This document shows positions 4,268 through 48,233 of a stretch of 54,785 bases of DNA, piece after piece. Source of the DNA: an uncultured Syntrophus sp. (lineage in GTDB: Bacteria; Desulfobacterota; Syntrophorhabdia; Syntrophorhabdales; Syntrophorhabdaceae). Each line of letters starts with the position of its first letter. The first letter of the stretch is position 1. A program made the position numbers and the translations under genes. The stretch lies in contig CAZXVZ010000001.1 of assembly GCA_964644085.1 (NCBI GenBank), positions 1 to 54,785 of the forward strand, read 5' to 3'. The notes under the pieces are model-generated. The model had not been told where the DNA came from, did no database searches, and worked only from the letters and a program-made list of their open reading frames with translations.

Positions 4268-4441
4268 ATATAGATCATTAGAGACACCTATCGCAATAAT
4301 TCGGTAAATGTCTGCCACAAATGATTTGGGGATTTAAATAGACAGATGTCGGATTTTGAAAGTTTTCCTTGTCCGCTTATCGTCACATTTCACAGTAGTT
4401 TTCATAATATATGTTTTTTAGTGCACTTTATAATTTGGGAT

Positions 4442-4468
4442 TAAGATTTACCTGCTTTGATCCGATAA
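4442..4468 (+). promoter_or_regulatory. Sigma-28-type promoter ahead of the cheB operon
   Basis: TAAG-N17-CGATAA (TAAGATTTACCTGCTTTGATCCGATAA), compared with the consensus TAAA-N15-GCCGATAA. It lies about 310 nt upstream of cheB. Confidence 0.55.
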
Positions 4469-4779
4469 TAATAATGGATTGAGAATATGCGCGCAGTCAT
4501 GTTTGGAAAAATAGGCCTTATTGCGGTGTTTTTCCCGAACGATGTGAGAAATTATCAATGGATTTCGAGAATGATTGCGGTACTGAAGCTGATGAGGAAA
4601 GAGGGGACTGCTCAGCTGTGATAAACCGGAGGCATATATCTGCAAAAGAGATTGACCAGGAGATAATCGCCTCAGTTTTAGTGAGTTTTTTTACGGCTAT
4701 GGTCTTTTGTTTTAATTATGGAAAGCTTCGGATTGGGGTTTATCTCTGTTGATGAAATGAAGGGGCAACAAGGAAAAAA

Positions 4780-5808
4780 ATGATTAAGGTTCTCGTTGTG
4801 GATGACTCTCTTGTTATGCGAAAAGCAATATCACGCATGCTGTCGAAGGACCGTGATATCCAGATTGTGGGAACCGCCATGAATGGCCGGGACGCCATTG
4901 AGAAAGTGGAGACTCTAAAGCCGGATGTAATAACAATGGACATTGAAATGCCCGTCATGGATGGCCTTGAAGCGCTCCGTCATATTATGTCTCGAAACCC
5001 TATCCCTGTTATTATGCTGAGTGCCTTGACGAAGGAAGGCGCTGATGTGACCATGGAAGCGCTTGACCTCGGCGCTTGCGACTATGTAACAAAAGATTTT
5101 GCCAACATGGCAAACTCCTTAGCCGCGAAAGAAGCGGAGATTCTCGCCAAGATAAAAAATATTGCTAAAAATAAAGTTAAATTCTTATTAAGAAAACTGG
5201 ACGTTACCAAAAAACCGATCGTCCTGGATCCTGATCAGAAAATTAAACATGAAGTTTTATCCATTGGAGCATCCACCGGCGGCCCGCCTGCTCTTCAGCA
5301 TATTCTTTCAAAGCTCCCGAAAGATTTCCCGATTCCCGTCATTATAGCGCAACACATGCCGAAGCTTTTTACACAGTCTTTTTCGCAGAGACTCGACGCT
5401 GTTTCTCAGCTTCATGTAAAAGAGGCAGAGGAAAATGAACAACTTGTCCCCGGTGTTGCCCTCGTCGTGCCGGGAAATACGCATGCCGCGCTCAGAAGAA
5501 AAGGAAAGGAAGTCATCGTTGAGTTTGTGAATGGGGCACAGTATATTTACAGGCCTTCAGTTGATCTTCTTATGTCATCTACCGCCGAGGCCTATCAAGA
5601 ACAATCAATCGGTGTTGTCCTGACGGGGATGGGTAATGACGGATTGGTAGGCATGAAAGAGATGAGATCGAAAAATGGATACATTATCGCTCAGGACGAG
5701 GAGACGTGTGTGGTTTATGGCATGCCGAAGGCAGTCATTGCAGCCAAACTCGCTGACGCCATTCTCCCTATAGACAAGATATCCGAGGAAATAATGAGGG
5801 TGCTATGA
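4780..5808 (+). CDS. cheB: Chemotaxis response regulator protein-glutamate methylesterase
   Basis: 342 aa. It combines a receiver domain (VLVVDDS...DIEMPVMDG) with a CheB methylesterase domain (GASTGGPPAL, GMGNDG). Confidence 0.95.
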   Translation: MIKVLVVDDSLVMRKAISRMLSKDRDIQIVGTAMNGRDAIEKVETLKPDVITMDIEMPVMDGLEALRHIMSRNPIPVIMLSALTKEGADVTMEALDLGACDYVTKDFANMANSLAAKEAEILAKIKNIAKNKVKFLLRKLDVTKKPIVLDPDQKIKHEVLSIGASTGGPPALQHILSKLPKDFPIPVIIAQHMPKLFTQSFSQRLDAVSQLHVKEAEENEQLVPGVALVVPGNTHAALRRKGKEVIVEFVNGAQYIYRPSVDLLMSSTAEAYQEQSIGVVLTGMGNDGLVGMKEMRSKNGYIIAQDEETCVVYGMPKAVIAAKLADAILPIDKISEEIMRVL

Positions 5809-7652
5809 AAAAAACTAAGAGTCAAAAAACGGCACATAAGAGAGTGACTAAAAAAGCATTAGCGCATAGTATTGGCCTCTTGAGAGATGGGGATAATTTC
5901 GAAAAAGAAAAAGCCATAGATGCCCTGATAGCGTCTCCGGGTAAGGAAGTCGTGGAAGCGATTATTCCTCTTTTGCAGGAGAAGAATACGAGCACAAGAA
6001 TGGCAGTTCTTGATGTTTTAAAAAAAATCGGAGGCAGCCATGTTGATGGTATTATTACAATGCTCTACGATGAAAATGAAGATATAAGAGTCTATGGCTG
6101 CGAGGTTCTCAGTTTTTTAAAAGACCCGCGGGCCATCCCCAGCCTCATTGATAAATTGGGTAATGACGCCGAAAACGTGAGAAACGCTGCGTGCATGGCA
6201 CTTGGAGATTTTGATGACAAAGAAGCTATAGAGGCTCTCTTAAATGCCCTGCAGGATGACGAATGGGTTGCTTTCTCAGCGATATACAGTATCGGACCGA
6301 AAAAACTCAAAAGTGCCGCACCACGGCTTATGGAGTTTTTCAAAACAGGCAGCGAAGAACTGTCAATCGCCGCGTGCGAAGCGCTGATTGAATATAAGGA
6401 TAATGATATTCTTGATGAGATTTTTGAAATACTGAAGAGATGGGACAGGCCGAAGAGAAACGTCTATTTGAAAACCATTCTTGAGAAAGGCAATGAAGAG
6501 CTTTTTCGAAAACTCAAGGAAAAAATTGGGGATGAATTATATGAGCACCTTTTAAGCAGTGTCCGGAACGAGAAACAGCATTCTCTTGAAATAATGCGAA
6601 TGCTCACGAATTTCAAACACAGGGAGACCTGCGAGGCAATCCTCGACGTGCTCAAAGAAATGGATGCTGATAGCGAAGATTATGAAGCAATATTAATACT
6701 TTTTGCCTCCGTCAGTGATATGTGGGGTCATTATATCGAAGAATATATGAAAAAGGACGAGAAATACCTGATACCGATTATCAGGGCTTGCAAGATAGCC
6801 GGTGTTAAACTTGAAGAACCGGTACTCCTGGATGTGTATCTTTCCTCTTCTATCGATGTTAAAAGGGAGATTATCACCGGTATCCCCGGTATTATCCGTG
6901 AAAATGGAAGCTCAATCGTGCGGGAAGCCATCAAAGACACTGACGGTCATATAAAGGGATATGCCGTGGATGTAGTTGGGGCCCTTTCGCTCCATGAATT
7001 AAAAGATGACATAATATCTATTACACAAAATGATTTCCCCGACGTAAGAACAAAAGCAATCAAAACGCTTTTCTCTCTCGATAAAGGCGGGGCAATGAAA
7101 CTTATAAAGACTTTTGTATATGACGGTTCTGCGGAAGACAAGAAAATATATCTCTCGGCAACGCACCTTATCGACGGAGAAGATAATTATCCCTTTATTG
7201 AAAAACTGATCTTTGACAGGGATGAAAACGTGAGAAGAAGTACGACAAGAGTAATCGGCAATTTTGTCCAAAATCAGCGTTATGTTGATTTGCTCCAAAA
7301 AATTCTCAAAGATGACAATATATCCCATGAGGTATTAAAGGTCATTAGAGACAAAAAAATGAGTATGTTTACAGACAGGTTGATAGAAATATTTGTCGAC
7401 AAGAAGAAGGAGGCGTGGACACGATATTACGCGCTCACGGCGCTCGGTGCTTTTGAAGACAATTCATTGTTTGATATTTTCGTGAACGGTCTTAAAGACC
7501 ACAATGGTCTGATTGTCATAGGATGCATGAGGGCACTGGCGGATTTAAATGATAAAAGGGCTATACGTTATATAAAATCTTTTACGGAGAATTCCAACGA
7601 AGATGTCAGGTCAACGGCAGAGTCGGTGCTGGAAAAACTTGAGGGCATATAG
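5805..7652 (+). CDS. HEAT/PBS-lyase-type repeat protein encoded inside the che operon
   Basis: 615 aa. The start overlaps the cheB stop (ATGA at 5805-5808). The protein is a continuous series of roughly 30-residue HEAT-like repeats, e.g. DENEDIRVYGCEVLSFLKDPRAIPSLIDKLGNDAENVRNAACMALGDF. Confidence 0.85.
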   Translation: MKKTKSQKTAHKRVTKKALAHSIGLLRDGDNFEKEKAIDALIASPGKEVVEAIIPLLQEKNTSTRMAVLDVLKKIGGSHVDGIITMLYDENEDIRVYGCEVLSFLKDPRAIPSLIDKLGNDAENVRNAACMALGDFDDKEAIEALLNALQDDEWVAFSAIYSIGPKKLKSAAPRLMEFFKTGSEELSIAACEALIEYKDNDILDEIFEILKRWDRPKRNVYLKTILEKGNEELFRKLKEKIGDELYEHLLSSVRNEKQHSLEIMRMLTNFKHRETCEAILDVLKEMDADSEDYEAILILFASVSDMWGHYIEEYMKKDEKYLIPIIRACKIAGVKLEEPVLLDVYLSSSIDVKREIITGIPGIIRENGSSIVREAIKDTDGHIKGYAVDVVGALSLHELKDDIISITQNDFPDVRTKAIKTLFSLDKGGAMKLIKTFVYDGSAEDKKIYLSATHLIDGEDNYPFIEKLIFDRDENVRRSTTRVIGNFVQNQRYVDLLQKILKDDNISHEVLKVIRDKKMSMFTDRLIEIFVDKKKEAWTRYYALTALGAFEDNSLFDIFVNGLKDHNGLIVIGCMRALADLNDKRAIRYIKSFTENSNEDVRSTAESVLEKLEGI

Positions 7653-7661
7653 AGAAACGCT

Positions 7662-8492
7662 ATGATGACAAAAGACGAATTTGTCATGTTACGGGATTTC
7701 ATCTACGAGAAGTCGGGAATATTTTTTCCTGAAAACAAAACCTATCTTTTAGAGAGCAGACTGACGAACAGGCTTGGTGAACTCGGATTAAGTTCTTTTG
7801 AAGACTATTATTACAGACTCAAGTACAGCAATGATAAGGCGATGAATGAAATTCCCAACCTTTTCGATGTTGTTACCACGAACGAAACAAGTTTTTTCAG
7901 AAACCCTCCACAATTGGATGCGTTCAAAATTATTATGCAGAAGAATTATTTAAACGGTACCAAATCTGCCGCCGCACCTCTGAAAATATGGAGTACCGCC
8001 TGCTCAACAGGGGAGGAACCGTACACGCTTGCCATTATGATGGAAGAGCTTATTCAGACAACAAAACAGAACATACCTTATTTCATTTACGCGACCGACA
8101 TCAGTCAAAAAGTCCTTGAATCGGCGAAACGTGCGGTATTCAGTCAATACAGCATGCGCAACACTGATGAGTCGCTTAAGAATAAATATTTCATTGAAGA
8201 AAATCACATGTTTAAATTAAAGGAGAATGTGAAGAGAAACGTTAAGATAGATTTTATGAATCTGATTGATGAAAACTCGTATCGAGCATATCGACAGATG
8301 GACATTATTTTTTGCAGAAATGTTCTTATCTATTTTGATGAAAAGATGAAGAAAAAGGTCATCGAGAATCTGTATGAGTGTTTGAAGCCAAGAGGATTTC
8401 TGACAATCGGCCATGCGGAGTCACTTCACAATATTTCAAGAGCTTTCAAACCCCTCGTATTTCCGGGGACTATTGCCTATCAGAAAGGATAA
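7662..8492 (+). CDS. cheR: Chemotaxis protein methyltransferase
   Basis: 276 aa. It has a CheR N-terminal domain and a SAM methyltransferase domain (IWSTACSTGEEPYTLAI; IFCRNVLIYFD). Confidence 0.95.
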   Translation: MMTKDEFVMLRDFIYEKSGIFFPENKTYLLESRLTNRLGELGLSSFEDYYYRLKYSNDKAMNEIPNLFDVVTTNETSFFRNPPQLDAFKIIMQKNYLNGTKSAAAPLKIWSTACSTGEEPYTLAIMMEELIQTTKQNIPYFIYATDISQKVLESAKRAVFSQYSMRNTDESLKNKYFIEENHMFKLKENVKRNVKIDFMNLIDENSYRAYRQMDIIFCRNVLIYFDEKMKKKVIENLYECLKPRGFLTIGHAESLHNISRAFKPLVFPGTIAYQKG

Positions 8493-8495
8493 TCT

Positions 8496-8876
8496 ATGAA
8501 AACAGTACTTATCGTAGACGATTCATCAACTATAAGAAAACTGCTGGGTTATATCTTAAAAAAGAAAAACTTTGTCATTGCAGAAGCGGAAGATGGCATC
8601 GATGCTATGGAAAAATTGGGCCACGTGCAGGTTGATCTCGTGATCGTGGATCTTAATATGCCTAATATGGATGGGATTGAGTTCGTTAAAAATCTGAGAG
8701 ATAATTACTATTACATGGACACTCCTGTTATTATGCTGACGACAACGAAAGATGATAAGCTCAAAAAAGATGCTTTTGATGCCGGAGTCAATATGTTTCT
8801 CAACAAACCTATCCAGCCGAATTTTTTACTTTATAAGGTTGAGAGCCTTTTAAGCGAGGAGGAAGACCATGGATGA
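8496..8876 (+). CDS. cheY: Single-domain chemotaxis response regulator
   Basis: 126-aa stand-alone receiver (LIVDDSSTIRK; VDLNMPNMDG; NKP). It sits between cheR and cheA, and its stop overlaps the cheA start. Confidence 0.85.
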   Translation: MKTVLIVDDSSTIRKLLGYILKKKNFVIAEAEDGIDAMEKLGHVQVDLVIVDLNMPNMDGIEFVKNLRDNYYYMDTPVIMLTTTKDDKLKKDAFDAGVNMFLNKPIQPNFLLYKVESLLSEEEDHG

Positions 8877-10719
8877 AGCATTACAAAGAGATGAAATGCA
8901 GGAAATCATTGATGAATTTATCGCTGAATCCAGTGAGTTAATGGATAATGTAATTCGGGATGTTATTACGATAGAACAAAACCCGGATGAAGAGATGATT
9001 AACAGCATATTCCGTGCCGTCCATACCATAAAAGGGACGTCGAGCTTCTTGGGGTTTAATCTGCTCTCCAACCTGGCTCATAAAGCTGAGGATGTTCTCG
9101 GGTTGGTACGGAAAGGAGAGTTAAAAACAGATCAGGAATCGGCCGATGTACTTCTCGAGACTTTTGATTTAATAAAGATGATCATTAACGATATTCGATC
9201 GGACGGCACAGAGAAGCATGATATTTCTGCAGTCCTGGAAAAATTGAAGTTCCTTATGGAGGATAACAAAAATAAGGAGAAGAAATCCCCAGGGGAGCCG
9301 AAAAAATTAGGCGAGATTCTTCTTGAAGAAAATATTTTGACTAAAAGCGAACTTGATGATGTTTTGCAAAAACAAAAAAAAGAAAAAGATAAAAAAATAG
9401 GCGAAATCATTGTTGAGGAAAAGCTCGCCACTGAAGGGCAGATGAAAAAAATACTCTCCCAGCAGAAGTCGGTCAGTAAGGAAGAACAAAGCGTCCGCAT
9501 TGATGTTAAAAAACTTGATGAACTGATGAACCTTGTCGGTGAACTTGTCCTTGGGAAGAACAGGTTAATTCTCGTAAACAGCCTGGCAAAGAGAGAGGAG
9601 ACCAACGAAGCCGTATTTGATAATCTTACCGATGTGACGAGCTATATTGAAACCATCACAAACGAACTCCAGCTTTCCGTAATGCGGGCCCGCCTTGTTC
9701 CTGTCGGCAAAGTATTTAATAAGATACCCAGAATGGTCAGGGACCTCTGCGCTGAATTCAAAAAAGATATTGAACTGAAAGTTGAAGGCGAAGAAACCGA
9801 GCTGGACAGGTCATTAATAGAAGCGCTGGTGGACCCTATCGTCCATATTATCAGAAATTCCATTGATCATGGTATCGAACTACCGGATGAGCGGGAAAAG
9901 AAAGGAAAGGAAAGAAAGGGTATTCTTTCGATTCAGGCATATAATGAAGGGAACCACGTTATCATAGAAGTTTTCGACGACGGAAAAGGAATCAACCTGC
10001 AGGCTGTGAAAGATAAGGTGATGGAAAAAGGACTCATGACCGAGGCTGAACTGACAGGACTTTCACCAAAGGAAGCAATGAACCTCATTTTTATCCCCGG
10101 ACTCAGCACTGTGCAGAAGGTGAGCAGCGTCTCCGGCAGGGGCGTGGGAATGGATGTGGTGAAAACAAACATAGAAAAAATGAACGGTCAGGTCTACATC
10201 GATTCGGAAGAAGGCCGGTGGACAAAGCTTACCATTAAACTTCCGCTCACACTTGCTATTATGAGGGCATTGATTGTCAGGGTTGAAGATGAACTTTTCG
10301 CGATCCCTCTGAATACCGTTACCGAACTGGTAAAACTGGCAGAAGGGACCATTAAGACGGTTGATAAGAATGAAGTCATGATACTGAGAAACGCAGTTAT
10401 CCCCCTCGTAGACTTGTTAAGGACTTTTTCCATACAGAAAGAAGAAAGAAAAGACGGTTATGTCATCATCTGCAATATAGGAGAAAAAACGGTCGGAATC
10501 AAAGTGCATTCCGTCGTGGGCCAGGAGGAAGTGGTGATTAAACCGCTTGGAGAATTTTTAAAGAATATCAAAGGTATCAGCGGTGCGACAATAAGAGGTG
10601 ACGGAAAAGTAATCCTCATCCTTGATATTCCTTCCGTAATTATCCATTACAGCAATCAAAAGAAGGCATACGCGCATCTGCACAATGTTGTTGGCACACC
10701 GGCAACTGCCTTGAACTGA
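8869..10719 (+). CDS. cheA: Chemotaxis histidine kinase CheA (P2 region replaced by a K/E-rich linker with tandem MshEN-like motifs)
   Basis: 616 aa. The Hpt domain carries AVHTIKGTSSFLG. The HATPase_c domain shows HIIRNSIDHGIE, DDGKGIN and GRGVGMDVV. A CheW-like P5 domain is at the C-terminus. Confidence 0.95.
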   Translation: MDEALQRDEMQEIIDEFIAESSELMDNVIRDVITIEQNPDEEMINSIFRAVHTIKGTSSFLGFNLLSNLAHKAEDVLGLVRKGELKTDQESADVLLETFDLIKMIINDIRSDGTEKHDISAVLEKLKFLMEDNKNKEKKSPGEPKKLGEILLEENILTKSELDDVLQKQKKEKDKKIGEIIVEEKLATEGQMKKILSQQKSVSKEEQSVRIDVKKLDELMNLVGELVLGKNRLILVNSLAKREETNEAVFDNLTDVTSYIETITNELQLSVMRARLVPVGKVFNKIPRMVRDLCAEFKKDIELKVEGEETELDRSLIEALVDPIVHIIRNSIDHGIELPDEREKKGKERKGILSIQAYNEGNHVIIEVFDDGKGINLQAVKDKVMEKGLMTEAELTGLSPKEAMNLIFIPGLSTVQKVSSVSGRGVGMDVVKTNIEKMNGQVYIDSEEGRWTKLTIKLPLTLAIMRALIVRVEDELFAIPLNTVTELVKLAEGTIKTVDKNEVMILRNAVIPLVDLLRTFSIQKEERKDGYVIICNIGEKTVGIKVHSVVGQEEVVIKPLGEFLKNIKGISGATIRGDGKVILILDIPSVIIHYSNQKKAYAHLHNVVGTPATALN

Positions 10720-10786
10720 AAAACAGCTCACGGTTGAAAATGAATTTGTCACATTTAAGATATCGGAAAGAATTATGAAAGCGTGA

Positions 10787-10810
10787 TTAATCAACTTCGC
10801 CGTTGATTAA
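10787..10810. repeat. Perfect 9-bp inverted repeat (TTAATCAAC-N6-GTTGATTAA) downstream of cheA
   Basis: Read directly from the sequence, about 70 nt after the cheA stop and just upstream of the cheW promoter. It is an AT-rich hairpin with no T-run. It could be an operator or a weak terminator. Confidence 0.3.
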
Positions 10811-10832
10811 GAAATAAATAGATAAAATAATT

Positions 10833-10858
10833 TAAGTATAACAAGGATTTTCCGATTA
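10833..10858 (+). promoter_or_regulatory. Sigma-28-like promoter ahead of cheW
   Basis: TAAG-N16-CGATTA (TAAGTATAACAAGGATTTTCCGATTA). The -10 element has one mismatch. It ends 23 nt upstream of the cheW ATG. Confidence 0.4.
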
Positions 10859-10881
10859 AATAGAATAGGGAGGAAGATCTT

Positions 10882-11349
10882 ATGAATGAAGCAAAAATCC
10901 TGCAACTTGTAACCTTTAAACTTGGCAGTGAAGAATTCGGGGTAGATATTTTGAAAGTGCAGGAAATCATTAAGATGATGAACATTACAAAGATACCCAA
11001 TGCCCCTGTATTTATTGAAGGAGTGATCAATCTGAGGGGTAAAATTATTCCTATAATTGACCTCAGAAAAAGGCTGGGATTTAAGGATCAGGACTACGAT
11101 AAATCAACGAGAATCATTGTTGTTGAACTTGACGGGCTGGTTCTCGGATTTATTGTCGATTCTGTTTCAGAAGTGTTGAGAATACCGGAAAATACGATAG
11201 AACCGCCACCGTCAATGGTCGCAGGGATAGAATCTGAGTATATAGAAGGAGTAGGCAAGCTTGATGACAGGCTCCTCATATTGCTTGAACTGAAGAAGAT
11301 TTTTACATCACCTGAAAAAAAAGATATAGAAAATATCGATGTTGGTTAG
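10882..11349 (+). CDS. cheW: Chemotaxis coupling protein CheW
   Basis: 155 aa single CheW-like domain (FGVDILKVQEII...PNAPVFIEGVINLRGKIIPIIDLRKRLG). A GGGAGGA ribosome-binding site lies upstream. Confidence 0.95.
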   Translation: MNEAKILQLVTFKLGSEEFGVDILKVQEIIKMMNITKIPNAPVFIEGVINLRGKIIPIIDLRKRLGFKDQDYDKSTRIIVVELDGLVLGFIVDSVSEVLRIPENTIEPPPSMVAGIESEYIEGVGKLDDRLLILLELKKIFTSPEKKDIENIDVG

Positions 11350-11510: not shown

Positions 11511-11537
11511 TAAAGTTTTGCGAAAAAAAAACGATAA
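11511..11537 (+). promoter_or_regulatory. Sigma-28 promoter ahead of flgM
   Basis: TAAAGTTTT-...-CGATAA, i.e. TAAA-N17-CGATAA (TAAAGTTTTGCGAAAAAAAAACGATAA). The -35 element matches the extended TAAAGTTT consensus. It ends 30 nt upstream of the ATG. Confidence 0.6.
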
Positions 11538-11566: not shown

Positions 11567-11863
11567 ATGGTGGACGACAAAAACATTAATTTCCTTGATA
11601 ACCTGGCAGGACTTGCGGAGAAAAAGATGCAAAAAAAGAGGGCCGGCAAAGAAAGCAGCAACAATGCCGTTGTGAAGGTCGCGCTCTTTGCGAAAAAACA
11701 GGAAATTAATGCGCTGAAAGAAAGGGTTAGAGCAGAACCTTTCATTCGCATGGAAAAAGTGAATGAGATAAGAACATTAATAAAGAATGAAGCATTCACG
11801 ATTAACAGTAAGCTTGTCGTGAGAAGCATTTTAAAAAATCACCTCCTTGATGAGTTGTTATGA
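11567..11863 (+). CDS. flgM: Anti-sigma-28 factor FlgM
   Basis: 98 aa. The C-terminus EKVNEIRTLIKNEAFTINSKLVVRSIL resembles the conserved FlgM sigma-28-binding end. The gene has its own sigma-28 promoter, and the next gene overlaps it by ATGA. Confidence 0.7.
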   Translation: MVDDKNINFLDNLAGLAEKKMQKKRAGKESSNNAVVKVALFAKKQEINALKERVRAEPFIRMEKVNEIRTLIKNEAFTINSKLVVRSILKNHLLDELL

Positions 11864-12291
11864 TGAATAATCATGCGCTTTTAGAGATAACACGTAAAGA
11901 AAAGGAAGCCCTCAATGAATACTTGAAAGTTCTTCATAGAGAAAGGGATTCAATTGTCTCTTTTTCACTCGAGGGGGTTATCCGGGGGAACAGCGAAAAA
12001 GAAGATATAATAAAAATAATAGAGCATTTAGAGAAAGAGAAACATAGGCTTACTCAATCTGTTAACAAGGAAAATGCGGTGTTTCAAAGCGAAACATGGA
12101 AGCTGTTAAGGGCAGAGATGGCACAGATAGTAAGAGAAATTAAGACAGTGGTCAAGAACAACATAAAATTGCTGGTGTTCTCGGTGGATTTCACGAAATC
12201 ATCTATGGAGCATGTCCTTATTTTTGTCAATAACTTCAAGTTTGACAAAAACGAAGAAAAAAGACCGGTTTTTCACTCAAAGGTGATTTGA
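11860..12291 (+). CDS. flgN: FlgN-like flagellar export chaperone (context-based call)
   Basis: 143 aa, E/K-rich and helical-looking, translationally coupled to flgM. The call rests on size, composition and the conserved flgM-flgN order, not on a diagnostic motif. Confidence 0.45.
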   Translation: MMNNHALLEITRKEKEALNEYLKVLHRERDSIVSFSLEGVIRGNSEKEDIIKIIEHLEKEKHRLTQSVNKENAVFQSETWKLLRAEMAQIVREIKTVVKNNIKLLVFSVDFTKSSMEHVLIFVNNFKFDKNEEKRPVFHSKVI

Positions 12292-12375
12292 AATGAATAC
12301 AAAGACAATGCCGCAAACCCGCCGAAAACACCCCGCAAACATGATGAACAACTATTTGGAGATATCTGGAAATCT

Positions 12376-12401
12376 TAAGTATCCGGTTTTCTGTCCGATA
12401 A
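12376..12401 (+). promoter_or_regulatory. Sigma-28 promoter ahead of the 66-aa ORF / response-regulator unit
   Basis: TAAG-N16-CGATAA (TAAGTATCCGGTTTTCTGTCCGATAA). It ends 18 nt upstream of the ATG at 12419. Confidence 0.55.
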
Positions 12402-12418: not shown

Positions 12419-12619
12419 ATGACAATTACGGATTATCAGATAAACAGCATTATAAAGACGTACATGAAGAACATGAAAATCAGGGCAACGTGCAGGGACA
12501 AATTTGATGAGCTGATGATAAAAGATGAGATGAACATTTCAAGAGAAGCCGTAAAAAAAGTGATATATAACCGAATAGGAGAGCGGGTAACAGAAAAACT
12601 GAAAAAGAATGAACGATAA
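12419..12619 (+). CDS. Small hypothetical protein (66 aa, K/E-rich)
   Basis: An AGGAG ribosome-binding site lies 6 nt upstream and a sigma-28 promoter is immediately upstream. The 3' end overlaps the next gene by 11 nt. I recognise no motif. Confidence 0.5.
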   Translation: MTITDYQINSIIKTYMKNMKIRATCRDKFDELMIKDEMNISREAVKKVIYNRIGERVTEKLKKNER

Positions 12620-13190
12620 TAGCGAAGATTTCAAAATACTTGTTGTGGATGATAGCAGGGAATTACGAGAGATTCTTGAAGAATATCTCGGAAGTGAGGG
12701 TGATAACGTGGAGGGGGCCGGTAATGGGAAAGAGGCCCTCGAAAAACACAGAAAGAATTATTACGATCTCATCATCACTGATTTGAATATGCCGGAACTA
12801 CCGGGTATGGAATTGATTAAAACGATTCGGAAAGAAAATGATATTACCGAATTCGTGATTATTACCGGCTACGCTTCAATAGACAGCGCTGTTGAAGCAA
12901 TAAAGGCCGGCGCTTTTGACTACATTGTAAAGCCATTCAGAATGGAAGAACTGAAGGTTGTTGTAAAAAATGTCCGTGAAAAGGTAAGACTCAAGAAACT
13001 GAATGCACAGCTTTACGATGCTCTGAAAAACTTTAATGACGAAATAGATAAGTATCGTCATCAAAGCGGGGACTGCGTCGTCGACAATGAACCAAAAGAA
13101 GTAATCTTTCAATCCATCAGTAGCGCGGAAAAGATTGTCAAAGAGATAAAAAACTTTGAAAAAGTCAGAAAAAGCAGATTCTCCTGCTGA
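12609..13190 (+). CDS. Response regulator, receiver domain plus helical C-terminal tail, no recognisable output domain
   Basis: 193 aa. The receiver motifs are ILVVDDSRELRE, LIITDLNMPELPG and FDYIVKPF. Confidence 0.85.
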   Translation: MNDNSEDFKILVVDDSRELREILEEYLGSEGDNVEGAGNGKEALEKHRKNYYDLIITDLNMPELPGMELIKTIRKENDITEFVIITGYASIDSAVEAIKAGAFDYIVKPFRMEELKVVVKNVREKVRLKKLNAQLYDALKNFNDEIDKYRHQSGDCVVDNEPKEVIFQSISSAEKIVKEIKNFEKVRKSRFSC

Positions 13191-13231: not shown

Positions 13232-14692
13232 ATGATCAGTGGTTCCCAGGTGCTTATCGTTGATGACAGTCCCGAGATTATTGAAATACTCTCGGATTTC
13301 TTTACCCTTAATAATTGTGATATTTATAAGGCGTTGACAGGCAAGGAAGCCCTTAAAATCCTCGATAAGAAAGATGTTGAAGTCGTTATTCTTGACGTAA
13401 AATTGCCTGATATAAACGGAATATCGCTTCTCAGCATGATCAAAGAGAGCAAACCTGCAACTGCTGTTATTATGGCCACGGGTCATTACGAACTCAATTT
13501 TGTCGTTGAGGCGATGAAAAGGGGGGCTTCTGATTTCTTGTTCAAACCTTTTGAGTTTGAAAAACTTATGCTTGTCATGATGAGAGTCTTGAGAGAAAGG
13601 AAACTATTAATTGAGAAAGAGTATATGCTTCATAACCTTGAAGATAAGAGAAAAATAGAGGTATTAAACAGAGAACTCCATAAAAAGATAAAAGAACTGA
13701 CAACCATGTACAATATTTCCAATAAATTTAATTCCATCAATATATGCGACGATGTTTATGAAAAGATGATACAGATGGTGGGAGATGTATTGGATGTAAA
13801 GTCCTGCGGATATTACATTGCCGACGGCGACGGCAAGCTTGTACTATACACGGGTTTTATGAATAATAATAAGGAACTTGTAAAGGGACAAAAAATTGCC
13901 ATAGTTGACGAGATGTTAAAGGAATGCGGGACGTCCAGAAGACATGTTTTACAGGGAAACAGAATATACCTGCCTCTCGTCATTAAGGGCGAATCAATCG
14001 GATATATCATGGCCGAAACAAACGGAAATGGAAAAAACAATAATCGCCTTGAGAACGAGGCGTTTATTTTAAAACTCATCGCAGAGAAAGCTTCCACGTA
14101 TATTGAAAACAGAATGCTCTACGAAAGTCTCTTTGAAAATATTCTCCATACATTAAAATCTCTTATCGCTGCCATTAATAAGAGAGATTTGTACACAGAA
14201 GGCCATTGCAAGCGTGTTACGGAGATGAGTCTCCTGTTAGGAGAAAGAATGGGGATCACCGAGTACGAAATGGATGTCATACGAGTGGTGGGGCCTGTCC
14301 ATGATCTTGGGAAAATAGGTATTCCAGATTCAATATTACTGAAACCCTCTGGGCTTACAGATGCCGAATATTCCATGATGAAAAGTCACTCAATTTATGG
14401 AGAAGAAATAATGAGCAGGTTCGAAATCCTTTCCAATGAAGCAAAAATTATACGTCATCATCACGAAAGATACGATGGAACCGGATACCCTGATAATTTG
14501 CATGGCGAGGAAATACCTGTATGTTCACGCATCATAGCCGTCAGCGATGCCTGTGACGCAATGACCGATAGACCTTACAGAAAAGCAGTCACAAAAGATG
14601 AAATCGCGACTGAAATAAGACGTTGCAAGGGAAGCCAGTTTGACCCCCCCATGGCCGATCATATTGCTGATATAATACAAGAGGGCCATTAA
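13232..14692 (+). CDS. Response regulator with GAF-like and HD-GYP domains (c-di-GMP phosphodiesterase, RpfG type)
   Basis: 486 aa. The receiver shows VLIVDDSPEI and ILDVKLPDINGI. The central region is GAF-like. The HD-GYP domain carries HDLGKIGIPD and HHHERYDGTGYP. Confidence 0.9.
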   Translation: MISGSQVLIVDDSPEIIEILSDFFTLNNCDIYKALTGKEALKILDKKDVEVVILDVKLPDINGISLLSMIKESKPATAVIMATGHYELNFVVEAMKRGASDFLFKPFEFEKLMLVMMRVLRERKLLIEKEYMLHNLEDKRKIEVLNRELHKKIKELTTMYNISNKFNSINICDDVYEKMIQMVGDVLDVKSCGYYIADGDGKLVLYTGFMNNNKELVKGQKIAIVDEMLKECGTSRRHVLQGNRIYLPLVIKGESIGYIMAETNGNGKNNNRLENEAFILKLIAEKASTYIENRMLYESLFENILHTLKSLIAAINKRDLYTEGHCKRVTEMSLLLGERMGITEYEMDVIRVVGPVHDLGKIGIPDSILLKPSGLTDAEYSMMKSHSIYGEEIMSRFEILSNEAKIIRHHHERYDGTGYPDNLHGEEIPVCSRIIAVSDACDAMTDRPYRKAVTKDEIATEIRRCKGSQFDPPMADHIADIIQEGH

Positions 14693-18864: not shown

Positions 18865-18931
18865 GCTGGTATGATATTTTTTAACACAAAATTGCTTTGA
18901 AATCAAAACCTTGGTGTGTTGCGGAGGTTTC

Positions 18932-21900
18932 ATGAAGAAGATCGGCATAGACATCGGTTCGGTAAGTGTCAATCTGGTTGTCATGGATGAAAACAATGAG
19001 ATTGTCACAACACAATATTTTCGTCACAAGGGCAGGCCCTTTGAAATCGCGCGGGAAATTATCCGGGAATGCACAGACGGTTACGGTATCGATTTTATTG
19101 CCACAACGGGCACCGGCGCGAAATTATTTTCATCCCTTGTTGGAGCTTCCTCTGTTAATGAAATCGTGGCGCTGACGAAAGGGTTCAGCTGGTTTTACCC
19201 TCGCACGGGTAGTGCCATCGATATTGGCGGTGAAGATTCAAAGCTTATTATTTTCGAACCGACCGGAAATAACGGGGTCTTGCGCGTGAAAGATTTCTCC
19301 ATGAACGCGCTCTGCGCGGCCGGCACCGGCTCCTTTCTCGATCAGCAGGCATCGCGTTTATGTTTCACTATTGAGGAGTTCAGTGAGATCGCGCTGAAAT
19401 CGAAAAATCCTCCACGAATAGCAGGGCGTTGCACCGTCTTTGCCAAATCGGACATGATCCATCTCCAGCAGATAGCGACACCTGATTATGAGATTGTAGC
19501 CGGCCTTTGCTATGCCCTTGCAAGAAATTTCAGAGGCAATATTGCGAAGGGCAAAGACATAAGGACTCCCGTGGCATTTATCGGAGGTGTCGCAGCGAAT
19601 GCCGGTATGAGAAAGGCTTTAAGAGAAGTTTTTGATCTGCGCGATGAAGATTTTTTTATTCCTCAACATTTTGCCTCCATTGGGGCCATCGGGGCCATTT
19701 GCACCGTCATCGAAGAGCCTTCCTTGAGGCAGAGTTTCACAGGCCTTGAAAAACTCGATGAGTACCTGCGGGAGGAGAAACTTCAGGCTTCTCTCGAACC
19801 GCTTACCATTTCTGAAAAGAACCTCCATGTGTCCTACAATTTGAGGCCTATTCTGGAGAAAACAAAGGTGTATCTCGGTGTAGATGTCGGCTCAATCAGC
19901 ACCAATCTGGTTATCATCGACGAGGAGAAACGCCTTATCGCGAAGAGATACCTCATGACAGAAGGCCGGCCCCTTGAAGCGGTGAAGAGAGGCCTCTTTG
20001 AAATTGGAGAAGAGGTCGGCAATCTGGTGGAAATTGTCGGCGCCGGGACAACAGGCTCAGGCCGATATCTTACAGCGGATTTTATTGGCGCCGATATTGT
20101 GCGAAATGAAATTACCGCTCAGGCTGAAGCGGCTATTGATATTGATCATCAAGTAGACACAATATTTGAAATCGGCGGGCAGGATTCGAAATATATCAGT
20201 ATTGAAAATGGTGTTATAGTTGATTTTGAGATGAATAAGGCATGCGCTGCCGGAACAGGCTCGTTTCTTGAAGAACAGGCCGAGAGGCTGGGCATTTCCA
20301 TTAAGGAAGAATTCGGTAAGCTTGCCTTATCATCAAAAAAACCTGTTAAGATGGGGGAGAGGTGCACTGTTTTTATCGAATCCGATGTTGTTCACCACCA
20401 GCAAAGAGGAGCACCGACAGAGGATATAGTAAGCGGGCTGGCCTATTCAATAGTCCAGAATTATTTGAACAAGGTGGTTGGCGACAGAAAAATAGGTAAG
20501 AGAATATTCTTTCAGGGAGGAACTGCCTTTAACAAAGGCGTTGTGGCAGCATTCGAAAAGGTACTTGAAAGACCTATCGAAGTGCCTCCTCACCATGATG
20601 TTACCGGCGCCATCGGTGTTGCTATTCTTGCAATGAAAGAAAGAAACTGGGAGAAGAGCGGCTTCAAGGGTTTTGATTTGAGCAAGAGAAAGTATGAAAT
20701 AGAAACATTTGAATGCAAGGGGTGTGAAAATCTCTGCGAAATCAGGCGTGTTACCGTTGAGAACGAGGAGCCGCTTTATTATGGAAGCAGGTGTGAAAAA
20801 TATGATGTTGTAAGAAAAGTTGAGAAGAAAGATATCGCGGACCTTTTCAAAAAAAGAGAAAAACTGCTCGATTCGGTCTATGATAAAACGGCTGACGGTC
20901 CACAGATTGGCATACCCAGATTCCTTCATATGCACGAATTCGCTCCTTTCTGGAAAAGTTTTTTGACAGAATTAGAATTTTCTGTTTGTTTTTCAGATCA
21001 GACAAATAAAAAAATTATCCGTAACGGCGTTGAAAACATTATCGTTGAAACATGTTTTCCCGTCAAGCTTGCCCACGGTCACGTTCTTAATCTCATTGAG
21101 AAAGGGGTAAAACGAATCTTTATACCGAGCATTATCAACCTGAAAAAGCCAGCAGAAGATTCATCAAACGCCTTCGCCTGTCCGTATGCTCAGTCACTCC
21201 CGTATTCCATGAAAGCTTCCATCAATTTTAAGGAAATGGGAGTCCGCGTCCACACACCCGTTGTGCATTTTGGTGAAGACGATAAGGCTGTCATGGATAA
21301 TCTTGTGAAGCATTTTAAGAGATACAAAATCTCCAAGTCTCGTGTTGAGAATGCTTTCCGGGTGGCCACGAAGGCTCAGGAAGAATTTTACAGGAAGTGC
21401 GTTGAAACCGGTTCTTCGTTCCTGTCGTCACTGAACACGGATGATAAAATTATGGTGATTATAGGGAGACCCTATAACAGTGCCGATGCCGGGGCCAATC
21501 TGAACATCCACAAAAAGCTGATCAACCTTGGCGTATATCCTATCCCTATGGATATGCTGCCTCTTAATGAAGTTACCGTCGAAACTGACGACCTTGACCA
21601 CATGTACTGGGGATATGGACAGAAAATATTGAAAGCTGCGCGATTCATCAAATCCCATAAGAATATGTATGGTATTTATCTCACCAGTTTTGGTTGCGGC
21701 CCTGATTCTTTTATCGTTCACTTTTTTAAGAAAATTATGGGGGCTAAACCCTATCTTCAACTGGAGATCGATGAACACAGCGCTGACGCGGGGATGATTA
21801 CGCGTCTCGAGGCCTTCATCGACAGCATCAAAAATGCAAAGTCAGAAAAAGAGAAGGTTCAATACAAAAAAATAACATTTGGATCAAACGGAGAGAGGAG

Positions 21901-23086
21901 AAAGATTTATCTACCGTATATGTCTGATCATGCTGTTACACTTTCATATGCTTTTAGAGCGTGCGGTATCGATGCTGAAATTATGGAAGAATCAGAAGAA
22001 GCCACAGTAGTCGTGGGTAGAAAATTTACTACCGGTAAAGAGTGTTACCCGTGTATCCTCACGACAGGTGACATGCTGAGGACGGTAAGAAAAGAAGGTT
22101 TTAATCCGGACAGGAGCGCTTTTTTTATGCCGTCCGGAGACGGCCCCTGCCGTTTTGGCCAGTACCACAGATTTCATAGAATGGTCCTCGATGAGGCCGG
22201 TTTTGACAGTGTCCCAATATATGCCCCCAACCAGGACCATCGCTTTTACAAAGAGCTCAATATTTTAGGGGGAAAATTTAAACGTCTCGGGTGGCGCGCT
22301 GTTGTGGCAACAGATCTTCTCATCAAAATGCTCCACGAGATACGTCCTTATGAGAAAAAAACCGGAGAAACCGATGATGTGTACAGGGAGGCACTCACGT
22401 CCGTCTGCCGGTCAATAGAAGGAGGAGCGGAAGATATCGTCAACGTTCTTCAATCTGTTTTAGATCGTTTTTTAAGTATTGAACGGATAGCCGCGCAAAA
22501 ACCGATTATTGGCGTTGTCGGGGAGATTTACATACGTTCAAATCGGTTCAGTAATAATAATCTTGTGAGAAAGATAGAAGAGTATGGGGGTGCTGTCTGG
22601 CTTGCGCCAATTTGTGAATGGATATCCTATGTAAACTATACCGGCAAAAAGAAAAGCAGGAAAAAGGATAACATCATGGGACTTTTCAGGCTTTTTCTCA
22701 CCGATTATATCCAGCACAAAGACGAACGCTTACTGGAAGAGATTTTTACCCCTTACCTCAAATATGGCAGAGAACCACACGTAGAAGAAATTCTTCAAAA
22801 GGCAAGCCCTTATATCCATGAGAGTTTTGAAGGGGAAGCAATCCTCAGCGTGGGAAAGAGTGTTGATTTTGCCGGTAAAGGTGTTTCCGGTATTGTCAAT
22901 GCCATGCCTTTTACCTGCATGCCCGGCACCATATCCAGTGCCATCATGAGGCTGATTCATAAAAACCATGATATTCCGGTCATGAATGTGGCCTACGATG
23001 GACAGGGCGCGACGAATATTTTGACGAGGCTTGAGGCTTTTATGTATCAGGTTAAAGATCAATTCCAGAGCAAGCGTAATGAGTAG
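18932..23086 (+). CDS. Fused double BadF/BadG/BcrA/BcrD-type ATPase (2-hydroxyacyl-CoA dehydratase activase-like) with a large C-terminal domain of unknown function
   Basis: Two tandem ATPase modules are present (IGIDIGSVSVN and LGVDVGSISTN). Each keeps the CAAGTGSF and RCTVF Cys contexts used for the bridging [4Fe-4S] cluster in activases. Next come CKGCENLC and a tail of about 750 aa. A GGAGG site precedes the ATG at 18932. Confidence 0.85.
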   Translation: MKKIGIDIGSVSVNLVVMDENNEIVTTQYFRHKGRPFEIAREIIRECTDGYGIDFIATTGTGAKLFSSLVGASSVNEIVALTKGFSWFYPRTGSAIDIGGEDSKLIIFEPTGNNGVLRVKDFSMNALCAAGTGSFLDQQASRLCFTIEEFSEIALKSKNPPRIAGRCTVFAKSDMIHLQQIATPDYEIVAGLCYALARNFRGNIAKGKDIRTPVAFIGGVAANAGMRKALREVFDLRDEDFFIPQHFASIGAIGAICTVIEEPSLRQSFTGLEKLDEYLREEKLQASLEPLTISEKNLHVSYNLRPILEKTKVYLGVDVGSISTNLVIIDEEKRLIAKRYLMTEGRPLEAVKRGLFEIGEEVGNLVEIVGAGTTGSGRYLTADFIGADIVRNEITAQAEAAIDIDHQVDTIFEIGGQDSKYISIENGVIVDFEMNKACAAGTGSFLEEQAERLGISIKEEFGKLALSSKKPVKMGERCTVFIESDVVHHQQRGAPTEDIVSGLAYSIVQNYLNKVVGDRKIGKRIFFQGGTAFNKGVVAAFEKVLERPIEVPPHHDVTGAIGVAILAMKERNWEKSGFKGFDLSKRKYEIETFECKGCENLCEIRRVTVENEEPLYYGSRCEKYDVVRKVEKKDIADLFKKREKLLDSVYDKTADGPQIGIPRFLHMHEFAPFWKSFLTELEFSVCFSDQTNKKIIRNGVENIIVETCFPVKLAHGHVLNLIEKGVKRIFIPSIINLKKPAEDSSNAFACPYAQSLPYSMKASINFKEMGVRVHTPVVHFGEDDKAVMDNLVKHFKRYKISKSRVENAFRVATKAQEEFYRKCVETGSSFLSSLNTDDKIMVIIGRPYNSADAGANLNIHKKLINLGVYPIPMDMLPLNEVTVETDDLDHMYWGYGQKILKAARFIKSHKNMYGIYLTSFGCGPDSFIVHFFKKIMGAKPYLQLEIDEHSADAGMITRLEAFIDSIKNAKSEKEKVQYKKITFGSNGERRKIYLPYMSDHAVTLSYAFRACGIDAEIMEESEEATVVVGRKFTTGKECYPCILTTGDMLRTVRKEGFNPDRSAFFMPSGDGPCRFGQYHRFHRMVLDEAGFDSVPIYAPNQDHRFYKELNILGGKFKRLGWRAVVATDLLIKMLHEIRPYEKKTGETDDVYREALTSVCRSIEGGAEDIVNVLQSVLDRFLSIERIAAQKPIIGVVGEIYIRSNRFSNNNLVRKIEEYGGAVWLAPICEWISYVNYTGKKKSRKKDNIMGLFRLFLTDYIQHKDERLLEEIFTPYLKYGREPHVEEILQKASPYIHESFEGEAILSVGKSVDFAGKGVSGIVNAMPFTCMPGTISSAIMRLIHKNHDIPVMNVAYDGQGATNILTRLEAFMYQVKDQFQSKRNE

Positions 23087-43366: not shown

Positions 43367-46300
43367 ATGAAGAAACTTTTTCATATAATTTTACTTTCCC
43401 TGGTATTACTGGTGAGCCCCTCCTTTTCGGAGGCGCAGACTATGGATAATTATTGCCAGATACCGTCTTCTATCAGCGCTCCTGTACCACCCAATGTAAT
43501 GTTTTTGATTGATACCAGCGGGAGCATGTCGTGGTGCGCTTATACAGGAGATTCCTGCAGCACAGTCGCATATCCGTATTCAGCGACCACCACATATGAA
43601 GGATACTTTGATCCTGAGAAGTATTACGCCCCCGATGGAAGCGGCGTATATGTCGAGGTCACACCTACGGGACTTCCCTGCGTGAAGACGTGTGTTGATT
43701 GGAAATGCTATAATTGGCCTTTCGGTGCCGAATGCGACTATACTCCGGGAACCCATAGCTGCAGTTCCAAGAAGTATGCATGCTGCCAGAGTTACACACA
43801 GTCCGGGGATTGCGGCGTGGAGACGGGCAATTATCTCAATTATCTCCACATGAGAAGAATTGATGTCCTCAGGTGGGCGCTAACGGGAGGTAAACCCGAT
43901 AGCTGCGATAATGAGACGGACACGAAGTGTAATCCTGACCTCTATCTCGATCCTAAACCTGACCAGTTAAGCTGCGACGCCACAGGCTGCATCCTGAGGG
44001 CTTACGACGGGACAAAGGTGAAGGCCCGGTATGACAGGATAGACGGGGTCAACGGCGGTCTTCTGTATCAACTCAAATTTGACCTTGAAACAAAACCATA
44101 TATCGGCGCCATGTTTTTTAATAACAATGGTATAGTAAAAACGGTTTATATCGGCGATTTCACCGCTTCAAACGAAATTGATACGATGAGTCCCTTTAAA
44201 AACGTTATCACTTCGGTCAATTATCAGCCTGTTGGAGGTTCCACCCCAACGGGGCCCGTCATGTGGGATGCCCTCAACTACTACGCGCAGAATGACTCAA
44301 GATATGGGGGACCGGCGCCGCAGACAGGTTTAGGTTCAGAGTGGAAGAACCCCATGAACCGCTGCTTTGACACGAACCTGAGCGGTGACTGTCAAGGGAG
44401 CGAGTATCAGTTCGTTCCCTGCTCAAAGAATTTTGTTATCCTCATGACTGACGGTCAGTGGAACAGGGGAGGGTATCCGGTCAATTCCTATTGCAAAATA
44501 GATGGCGATACCATAGAGACTGAATCGCCTGACCCTGTGGTGGCAGCGTACAAAATGCATAAAATCGGATTTACGAATGTCGCGGCCATTCCCCCCACCA
44601 CGAGTTACGTGGAGTCGGTTTATACTGTTGGTCTCTGGCTCGGCGGGACTGGCGAGCAGTCTTTAAAAAATGTGGCAATGTACGGCTCCTTCAACAGGTC
44701 AAATACGTGGCCCGGCGGCACGAGCGGGTATCCCCTGGACACCTGCAGCCCCGTCAATGATTGCTGTAACACCGCCGACTGCGGAAAGGGAAGTCCGTGC
44801 ACCGCTTTGCCGGCATCTTCTCCGGATTGGGATTCAAATGGCGATGGAATTCCGGACACCTTCTTCAAAGCGGATGATGCGGCGGGAATTAAGGCCAAGA
44901 TCGCGGAAATTATCCTGGAGATCATGCGCCGTGTCTCTTCGGGCAGCGCCGTTTCCATTCTTTCCTCCAGCGAAGGTACGGGAGCCAACCTCCTGCAGGC
45001 CGTGTACTATCCGAGAAAGGCATTCGGTGCCACGGAGATAGAATGGATCGGAGAGATGCAGAACCTGTGGTATTACGTTGATCCTTATCTCGCAAGTTCC
45101 ACCATACGGGAGGATACAAATATTGTAGACGGCGCAGACGGAAAAAACATACTCAACCTCAGTGATGATTATGTTTTAGAATTGTATTTTGATCCTCTCG
45201 ATGGTAAAACAAAAGCGAAGAGATACTCCACCGACAACGAAGGCGGGAGCAAAACCTATATTGATACGGTACAACTCGACGATATAAAAAATCTCTATGA
45301 GATAGGATCAGTGTTGTTTAACAGGACATCCTCCAGGACAGTTTACACAACAACAGATGAAAGCACCTTTATAGATTTTTCAACGGCAAATAAATCAACA
45401 TTGAGGGATTATCTGCAGGCGGCAGACGATACCGAGTCGGAAAAGATCATAGACTACGTGCACGGGATAGACCAGGCAGGATATCGAAGCAGGACCGTAA
45501 CAATAGACGGCACAACCGCTGTATGGAAGCTCGGAGATATAGTAAACTCATCGCCGCGCATGCAGTCTTCAGTGCCCTTGAACAGCTATTACAAGTCTCC
45601 GCCGGACGGCTATTCGGATACAACATATCGCGCGTATATCGACAGCAGCATGTACAAAGAACGAGGAATGTCCTACATAGGCGCTAACGATGGAATGTTG
45701 CACGCCTTCAAGCACGGTATTCTTGAACAGGTCTGGTCAACCCCTTCGCCCCAGCAGAGCGATGAAAAGGCCAGATTAAGAAACCCTGACGGGACAACTC
45801 CTCTCGGTACGGAGATCTGGACTTACATCCCGAAAAATACCCTTCCCTACCTGAAATACCTCGCTGATCCTGATTACTGCCACCTTTTTTCCGTAGATGG
45901 ATCAGCTATTATGTTTGACGCGAGCATTGAGAATGTTGACACAACGAACGGAACCACACCTGATGATTATTCTAATGACACAAAGACGCAGGCAAGCTGG
46001 AAAACTGTCCTCATAGGCGGAATGGGTTTAGGCGGCGCCAGCAAGATTACAGGCCATTCGTGCACGACCGGTGCCTCAGGAACCTGCGTCAAAACACCGA
46101 GGACTGACCCTGCTGACGCGACAAAAGGATTGGGTTATTCTTCCTATTTTGCTATTGATATTACCAATCCTGACAGTCCGTCGCTCTTGTGGGAGTTCTC
46201 AAACCCTAATCTGGGTTTTTCCACGTCAGGCCCTGCTGTTGTGAGGATCGGTGACGCGTCGAAGAACGGTAAATGGTTCGCGGTTTTTGCCTCCGGTCCT

Positions 46301-48232: not shown

Positions 48233-48233
48233 A

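Follow-up and report, generated by a model that had tools for sequence, protein, structure and literature searches.

A predicted MshEN_N c-di-GMP receptor module between P1 and P3 of a CheA without P2 from an uncultured Syntrophus

The chemotaxis histidine kinase CheA encoded on a 54,785-nucleotide stretch of DNA from an uncultured Syntrophus sp. of the Syntrophorhabdaceae (contig CAZXVZ010000001.1, positions 1 to 54,785; the whole stretch is called the window below) carries a short helical segment, residues 146-199, between its P1 and P3 domains. The identity of this segment as an MshEN_N module is strongly supported. MshEN_N is a 53-residue receptor for cyclic di-GMP (c-di-GMP) that is made up of four helices and two half-motifs and was first defined in Vibrio cholerae MshE. 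Our reading is that the segment is a c-di-GMP receptor placed between P1 and P3 of a CheA that lacks the P2 domain, with the ligand tuning kinase output, and we put the probability of this reading at roughly 0.6. Binding of c-di-GMP by the module is likely, as judged from sequence comparison and structural models; an effect on kinase output, which could be of either sign and of any size, is what we infer from it.

In translation, nucleotides 9304-9465 (this, the other parts of cheA, its neighbours from cheB to REC-HD-GYP and the sigma-28-like sites lie on the forward strand) read KLGEILLEENILTKSELDDVLQKQ-KKEKDK-KIGEIIVEEKLATEGQMKKILSQQ. The first half-motif spans residues 146-169 (9304-9375) and forms helices alpha1 and alpha2, and the second spans residues 176-199 (9394-9465) and forms helices alpha3 and alpha4, both being delimited by the NCBIfam model NF053729 and by AlphaFold2. 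They are separated by the six-residue spacer KKEKDK (residues 170-175, 9376-9393) and by direct reading are identical to each other at 9 of 24 positions. The translation bears out an earlier sequence-only reading of this DNA, which had placed two 24-residue copies with a 6-residue spacer at these coordinates. NF053729, a curated model named 'c-di-GMP_motif, MshE-related', aligns over its whole length (positions 1-53 of 53) with residues 146-199; it scores 40.2 bits on the full-length protein (E 2e-10; cutoff 38) and 45.3 bits on an 86-residue fragment alone (E 5e-12). The NCBIfam models for NfrB and type IV PilB likewise match the segment. When the fragment is searched against the PDB with phmmer, PilF of T. 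thermophilus comes up at E 4.5e-8, PilB of Geobacter at 3e-5 and MshE of V. cholerae (5HTL) at 3.4e-4, and a profile built from 45 CheA-type modules finds the same three at 1e-27, 4e-11 and 3e-10. Solved CheA structures match the P3 part alone of this profile, so no solved CheA carries MshEN_N. Within the window, CheA is the sole open reading frame with an MshEN_N profile match.

The module is not a complete MshEN or GSPII domain. The C-terminal alpha/beta subdomain of those domains is absent, P3 starts about 10 residues past the bundle, and CheA therefore has the N subdomain only, like the 'MshEN_N only' class of Wang et al. This explains why one part of the profile check proposed by the sequence-only reading gave nothing: the suggested Pfam model T2SSE_N has no match on CheA because it mainly spans the C subdomain, while NF053729 matches above its cutoff. 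A census of the motif by regular expression was too insensitive and was replaced by hidden Markov models. Two other Pfam models were considered and set aside. FumaraseC_C stays below threshold (23-25 bits against a cutoff of 32.5) and represents a similar helical hairpin, with fumarase/aspartase structures appearing at the bottom of the Foldseek list. DUF4388 (PATAN) gives a weak match over a half-motif (nucleotides 9304-9390, residues 145-180), and its below-cutoff score disqualifies it as a functional lead. It also matches 5 of 44 related CheAs (best E 8e-7), which suggests that the DUF4388 model includes an MshEN-like helical hairpin.

The protein that carries the module is a CheA by domain order and by setting. 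Its gene is an open reading frame for 616 residues at 8869-10719 that sits inside a che operon with cheB, cheR, cheY and cheW as neighbours. Hpt (residues 12-100), H-kinase_dim (206-273), HATPase_c (322-461) and CheW (467-591) are all found above the Pfam cutoffs, giving P1, P3, P4 and P5 in order, and the NCBIfam models for CheA give E-values from 1e-113 to 1e-133, yet score below their equivalog cutoffs. P1 (residues 1-136, 8869-9276) is predicted by AlphaFold2 as five helices (2-37, 41-61, 64-81, 89-112 and 120-136), and its phospho-accepting histidine is H52, within FRAVHTIKG. A flexible, indel-rich linker follows at residues 137-145 (9277-9303), where the predicted local distance difference test (pLDDT) is below 50 at 137-143 and the alignment of 120 homologues is variable and gapped. 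After the module comes a junction of residues 200-212 (9466-9504), with pLDDT below 50 at 203-207 in the full-length model, and then the P3 dimerisation domain (residues 213-275, 9505-9693), which consists of helices 213-242 and 247-275 and whose profile matches solved CheA P3 domains. The ATP-binding kinase domain P4 (residues 322-461, 9832-10251) and the CheW-like coupling domain P5 (residues 467-591, 10267-10641) complete the chain.

P2 is the domain on which response regulators dock, located between P1 and P3; it is present in CheAs of the E. coli and T. maritima type, and many CheAs do without it. A Pfam scan of the whole protein finds no P2 or CheY_binding domain here. In the AlphaFold2 model, the secondary structure up to residue 275 is purely helical and no strand comes before residue 276, which leaves no place for a P2 of alpha/beta type; P1 and P3 are separated merely by the 9 disordered residues and a 54-residue helical module. 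The proposal that the module occupies the slot of a missing P2 is thus upheld by both Pfam and the model.

The full-length AlphaFold2 model, computed from 44 aligned sequences, has a mean pLDDT of 86.9 and places the module in helices 147-153, 159-171, 177-183 and 189-203 at a pLDDT of about 90. A separate model of the fragment gives the same four helices. The order of a short alpha1, a long alpha2, a short alpha3 and a long alpha4 is that of the MshEN_N fold. When the fragment model is compared with the PDB by Foldseek, the top 12 matches are all MshE or PilF GSPII domains, with c-di-GMP-bound structures at ranks 1-11 and the non-binding GSPII-A at rank 12. The best match, 5htl_B, superimposes with a root-mean-square deviation of 1.1 Å over 57 columns at 32% identity and a probability of 1.0. 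Complexes of the N-terminal domain of Xanthomonas PilB with PilZ follow at ranks 13-17, weaker than MshE and PilF. The linker is accordingly predicted as a confident four-helix module rather than as a coiled coil, and the outcome that the sequence-only reading had named as fatal to it, a missing profile match together with a generic coiled coil, did not occur; the assignment to the MshEN motif stands on the NF053729 score, the PDB sequence matches and the predicted fold.

Conservation provides insight into whether the segment is kept for folding or for a ligand. Two sets were compared, the 120 nearest CheA homologues (65-100% identity; those that are labelled are Syntrophorhabdaceae or Syntrophorhabdus) and the 45 more distant CheA modules mentioned above, which were taken out of 50%-identity clusters. 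Both half-motifs are kept in all 120 close homologues, and G148, G178, L166, L196, Q169 and Q199 are invariant (120/120), while the linker on the P1 side (126-144) shows many substitutions and indels. Among the distant modules, Gly3 is present in 45/45 first halves and 44/45 second halves, Leu21 in 41/45 and 42/45, and Gln24 in 41/45 and 45/45, which is the same degree of conservation as in the P3 core. The spacer of these modules varies from 1 to 8 residues, with 6 the commonest length. At positions 1, 2, 3, 17, 21 and 24, which contact the ligand, the first half of our module reads K, L, G, L, L, Q and the second K, I, G, M, L, Q, the differences in half 2 at positions 2 (I) and 17 (M) being conservative. 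In the MshE structure, the Gln24 side chains touch only the ligand, at its ribose and phosphate, and the backbone NH of Gly3 reads guanine O6/N7; the variants G11L and G40I bind poorly or not at all. Gly3 and Gln24 contact only the ligand or are needed for binding it, and their conservation therefore argues for binding and not merely for folding.

The sequence-only reading had called for a survey of CheA orthologues for the same insert, and this was run: the same module lies beside P3 in CheAs of about 10 phyla. A search with residues 130-275 against 1.84 billion cluster representatives returned 1502 matches at E <=1e-3, and 76 of the best 150 representatives have the module fused directly to P3 in a CheA or CheA fragment. 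In an alignment of 44 CheAs (the query and 43 full-length representatives), NF053729 matches 41 at E <=0.001, the best at 1.5e-28. Pfam finds a P2 in one of the 44, P0242, which has no module, and in none of the 41 that do. A scan of one genome per species, which used 8 closer sequences as query and a search pattern within P3, gave 80 loci; a CheA open reading frame is present at 78 of them and has the module in the same frame at 59. The 80 loci were ranked by similarity to the query and thus towards module-bearing CheAs, so the scan indicates breadth and not prevalence. Their titles name Syntrophorhabdaceae, other Deltaproteobacteria, Acidobacteriota, Actinomycetota (Acidimicrobiales, Micromonospora), Gemmatimonadota, Gemmataceae, Verrucomicrobiia, Armatimonas, Eisenbacteria, Spirochaetaceae, Nitrospira and Thiorhodococcus. 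By these sequence comparisons, CheAs of the form Hpt-MshEN_N-P3-P4-P5, without P2, are common and have a broad phylogenetic range. Some CheA representatives, with P0155, P0237 and P0255 as the examples, have two to four consecutive MshEN_N modules ahead of P3, and several have an extra N-terminal Hpt or unassigned domains.

The deviations from the published motif that the sequence-only reading had listed are all real. Both halves begin with K, position 10 is N155 in the first half and K185 in the second, half 2 has A187 and M192, and the spacer numbers 6 residues as opposed to 5. They are not peculiar to this CheA: published binders accept such changes, or related CheAs often share them. In CheA-type modules, position 1 is most often Lys (22/45 in half 1, 25/45 in half 2). 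It is also found there in PilF GSPII-B, which has a dissociation constant (KD) of 6 nM for c-di-GMP and becomes 25-fold weaker upon the change K167R, and the extended consensus given by the PilF authors begins (R/K/L)LG (PMC11731258). At position 10, the 45 modules have G in 30 first halves and 20 second halves, with K in 15 second halves. The published c-di-GMP binders Bd2402 (N) and NfrB (Q) also do without the turn glycine, so a G at this position is a feature of the consensus and not a requirement for binding. A187 (position 12) is typical of related CheAs. M192 (position 17) is rarer, being found in 1 of 45 distant CheAs, where V and I predominate, and in 27 of 120 close homologues, where the majority have L; the change is a conservative hydrophobic one. 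None of the eight substitutions blamed for the failure of XpsE to bind is present in the module (0/8). Overall, published binders tolerate most of the deviations and two are common among related CheAs. The missing C subdomain should also be no obstacle, since the isolated MshEN_N of MshE (residues 1-62) binds c-di-GMP with a KD of 0.35 uM.

Several observations weigh against a c-di-GMP receptor that tunes the kinase. The turn glycine is replaced in both halves (N155, K185), and with none of G, A or S at position 10 the segment fails the relaxed regular expression of Wang et al. Foldseek gives weak E-values (0.03), which follows from the shortness of the module. The junction with P3 is 8-19 residues long in relatives and is modelled at low confidence, leaving no evident rigid path of transmission: residues 203-207 form a low-confidence break in the full-length model versus a continuous helix, also of low confidence, in the fragment model, and with models that disagree and a junction that varies in length, a rigid helical link from alpha4 to P3 is not established. 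Genes for c-di-GMP turnover lie within 6 kb of such a cheA at just 2-3 of the 80 distant loci. Neither c-di-GMP binding data nor a kinase experiment for a CheA-borne MshEN_N was found in the searchable literature, which leaves subscription-only papers outside. Finally, similarity is no guarantee, since two close relatives, PilF GSPII-A and XpsE, fail to bind c-di-GMP; in GSPII-A, small deviations together with structural context can abolish binding, and for this reason binding by the CheA module is no more than likely.

These relatives lead to the alternative that the module is a degenerate MshEN_N that binds no nucleotide and serves as a structured spacer between P1 and P3, or as a docking site for CheY, a phosphatase or a PilZ-type adaptor. 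There is a parallel in Xanthomonas PilB, whose degenerate N-terminal domain binds PilZ and whose complexes are among the Foldseek matches, and the module fills the slot of the CheY-docking P2, which Pfam finds in no module-bearing CheA of the alignment. The loss of the turn glycine from both halves would fit as well. However, Bd2402 and NfrB bind c-di-GMP with Asn and Gln, respectively, at that position. The ligand-only contacts Gly3 and Gln24 are invariant or nearly so in both halves across phyla, and it is exactly contact residues of this type that XpsE and GSPII-A have lost. We therefore regard a degenerate module as unlikely, although it deserves to be kept in mind. Alternatively, the module could bind another cyclic dinucleotide such as 3'3'-cyclic GMP-AMP (cGAMP) in place of c-di-GMP, given that MshEN binds cGAMP weakly (KD ~0.33 mM). 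This would be a considerable surprise: the affinity of the prototype for cGAMP is ~600-fold below that for c-di-GMP, the Gly-X pair of backbone NH groups, which recognises O6 and N7 of guanine and where adenine would clash, is retained in both halves, and the neighbouring signalling gene is of the HD-GYP type. A chance likeness between the MshEN motif and a helical linker or coiled coil of charged, low-complexity sequence, to which the K- and E-rich composition, the silence of T2SSE_N and the presence of only the sub-threshold FumaraseC_C and DUF4388 matches might point, is rejected as scarcely credible, because NF053729 matches end to end above its cutoff, the CheA-type profile reaches PilF at E 1e-27, the prediction is of four short helices with turns at 1.1 Å from 5HTL with no coiled coil, and the motif is strictly conserved next to a true linker that varies.

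The reading of the segment as a c-di-GMP receptor inside CheA also has a history. The sequence-only reading had taken the fusion to be undescribed, which it is not: CheA is named among the MshEN partners in the main text of Wang et al. 2016 (Nat Commun 7:12481, PMC5013675), and their Supplementary Table 4 lists an MshEN_N inside the CheA of Aeromonas, a module that is also in their alignment (PMC5013675). Reviews after 2016 merely cite Wang et al. on this point. The present CheA is a P2-less addition to a catalogued and widespread class of CheAs with a predicted c-di-GMP module, and the concept is already published. The Aeromonas protein resembles it in having the module directly upstream of P3, in a non-Arg residue at position 1 (M and K, compared with K and K) and in being, by sequence, a predicted c-di-GMP receptor. 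It differs in that it keeps P2 ahead of the module and has the turn G in both halves, where our CheA has N and K.

Among receptors with solved or characterised domains, the MshEN of V. cholerae MshE (5HTL) shares the two 24-residue half-motifs in a four-helix bundle along with Gly3, Leu21 and Gln24. Unlike CheA, it contains the further subdomain MshEN_C (T2SSE_N1) and controls a type IV pilus ATPase; its position 1 is Arg in place of K, its position 10 is Gly in place of N/K, and its spacer has 5 residues in place of 6. PilF gives the best PDB sequence match, through GSPII-C, and its GSPII-B has Lys at position 1 as CheA does, but the GSPII domains belong to a pilus and DNA-uptake ATPase, are followed by C-terminal subdomains and retain the turn glycine. 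In Bdellovibrio Bd2402 (REC-MshEN_N), E. coli NfrB (GT2-MshEN) and the (MshEN_N)2-CheX protein of Geobacter lovleyi, MshEN_N acts as a transferable input for c-di-GMP, joined to a signalling or enzymatic partner. The output domains of these three differ from that of CheA and none is a histidine kinase; the CheX fusion is a second chemotaxis protein with MshEN_N. Brakes of the YcgR type with PilZ domains, MapZ-CheR1, PlzC and the CheA-dependent activation of Pch also couple c-di-GMP to flagellar behaviour. These routes act through separate adaptors or downstream of CheA, whereas here the predicted receptor is inside the kinase polypeptide.

The cheA gene is part of a chemotaxis and flagellar cluster. 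In order, the window encodes a sigma-54 activator, an flhG-like ParA, a fliA-like sigma factor, cheB (4780-5808), a HEAT-repeat protein, cheR (7662-8492), cheY (8496-8876), cheA and cheW (10882-11349), followed by flgM (11567-11863), flgN (11860-12291), a stand-alone receiver (REC) protein (12609-13190; Pfam Response_reg) and a REC-HD-GYP protein (13232-14692; Pfam Response_reg, HD_5 and HD), the assignments from cheB onwards resting on Pfam and the genes from cheB to cheY lying upstream of cheA in the same operon. The cheA start codon lies inside the last 8 nucleotides of cheY (8869-8876), and this overlap suggests translational coupling of the kinase with the response regulator. The HEAT-repeat gene (5805-7652, 615 residues) between cheB and cheR overlaps the end of cheB by 4 nucleotides and is present in relatives. 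The REC-HD-GYP protein is a putative c-di-GMP phosphodiesterase whose translation contains VHDLGK and HHERYDGTGYP, an intact HHExxDGxGYP signature.

Three sigma-28-like promoter candidates were found by pattern search: TTAAG-N16-CCGATAA upstream of cheB (4441-4468), a second upstream of cheW (10832-10858) and a third upstream of the REC and REC-HD-GYP pair (12375-12401). The pattern TTAAG-N14-16-CCGATWA, which was picked after seeing the sites, has these 3 matches in the window, all intergenic, against 0.09 expected, and a search of the window with the strict sigma-28 consensus gave nothing useful. The proposal that an HD-GYP gene follows downstream behind a site similar to those before cheB and cheW thus agrees with the sequence. 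A weaker TAAAG...ACGATAA site occurs at 11511, ahead of flgM.

The adjacency of HD-GYP to cheA is ruled out as a conserved feature, as the pair is absent from three relatives of Syntrophorhabdaceae type (L081, L083 and the P0010 contig), whose CheAs are 84%, 80% and 68% identical. In these, cheA and cheW are separated by an EAL-HDOD gene on the opposite strand, and fliA and cheB by an HDOD/HD gene; neither gene is present in the corresponding intervals of the window (10720-10881 and 4268-4779). After cheW, the relatives continue with flgF-flgG-flgA-flgH-flgI, compared with flgM-flgN-REC-(REC-HD-GYP) in the window. A gene of phosphodiesterase type therefore adjoins cheA in the window (HD-GYP) and in the three relatives (EAL-HDOD), but the gene is a different one; a fourth, more distant locus ends too near cheA for its neighbours to be judged.

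Other features of the window lie further afield. The sigma-54 activator upstream (635-2131) has the arrangement REC-AAA+-HTH, and a sigma-54-like sequence, TGGCAT-N5-TTGCT, is found at 2668-2683, just before the flhG-like and fliA-like genes. The region 43367-49439, about 33 kb downstream of cheA, encodes a PilY1-like protein of 1307 residues together with a pilin-like protein that has a methylation motif at its N terminus, which suggests a type IV pilus gene cluster; the MshEN_N profile search of the open reading frames finds no MshE/PilB-type ATPase with an MshEN module in the window. Positions 18911-23086 encode a protein of 1391 residues in which two BcrAD/BadFG ATPase modules are fused with DUF2229 and an HGD-D-like region. 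It is of the activase type, belongs to the 2-hydroxyacyl-CoA dehydratase/benzoyl-CoA reductase family and is unrelated to the CheA module.

To act, the P1 domain of CheA must reach the ATP site of P4 and then offer its phosphate to CheY. On the tether from P1 to P3, AlphaFold2 models the module with confidence as a folded bead that has a flexible or uncertain junction on either side. In the favoured working model, one c-di-GMP molecule would be bound per module, with each guanine held by the backbone NH of Gly3, by the cluster of Leu2, Leu17 and Leu21 and by stacking of the Lys at position 1, and with Gln24 holding the ribose-phosphate. In PilF, binding of c-di-GMP unwinds the first turn of alpha1. 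In CheA, binding might rigidify or re-dock the module and so alter the access of P1 to the ATP site of P4, to CheY or to both, and the output of the chemotaxis kinase would thereby depend on the cellular level of c-di-GMP. It is also conceivable that phosphorylated CheA phosphorylates the co-regulated REC-HD-GYP protein, which would lower the c-di-GMP that CheA senses. Such a feedback loop is purely inferential and has a parallel in Pseudomonas, where Pch is a phosphodiesterase activated in a CheA-dependent manner. The complete scheme, in which c-di-GMP binds CheA through the in-line MshEN_N and switches output through the mobility of P1, and in which a loop through REC-HD-GYP could be closed, is put forward tentatively, and we would not be surprised to see it fail in some part.

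The conservation of the ligand contacts, the broad P2-less form and the varied neighbours of phosphodiesterase type make this CheA a well-defined biochemical target and not a new discovery. The characterised links between c-di-GMP and chemotaxis run via separate adaptor proteins or act at the motor. A receptor within CheA, if true, would bring c-di-GMP into the pathway at its first enzymatic step, and as the same architecture is found in about 10 phyla, gating of chemotaxis by c-di-GMP at the level of the kinase would then be general.

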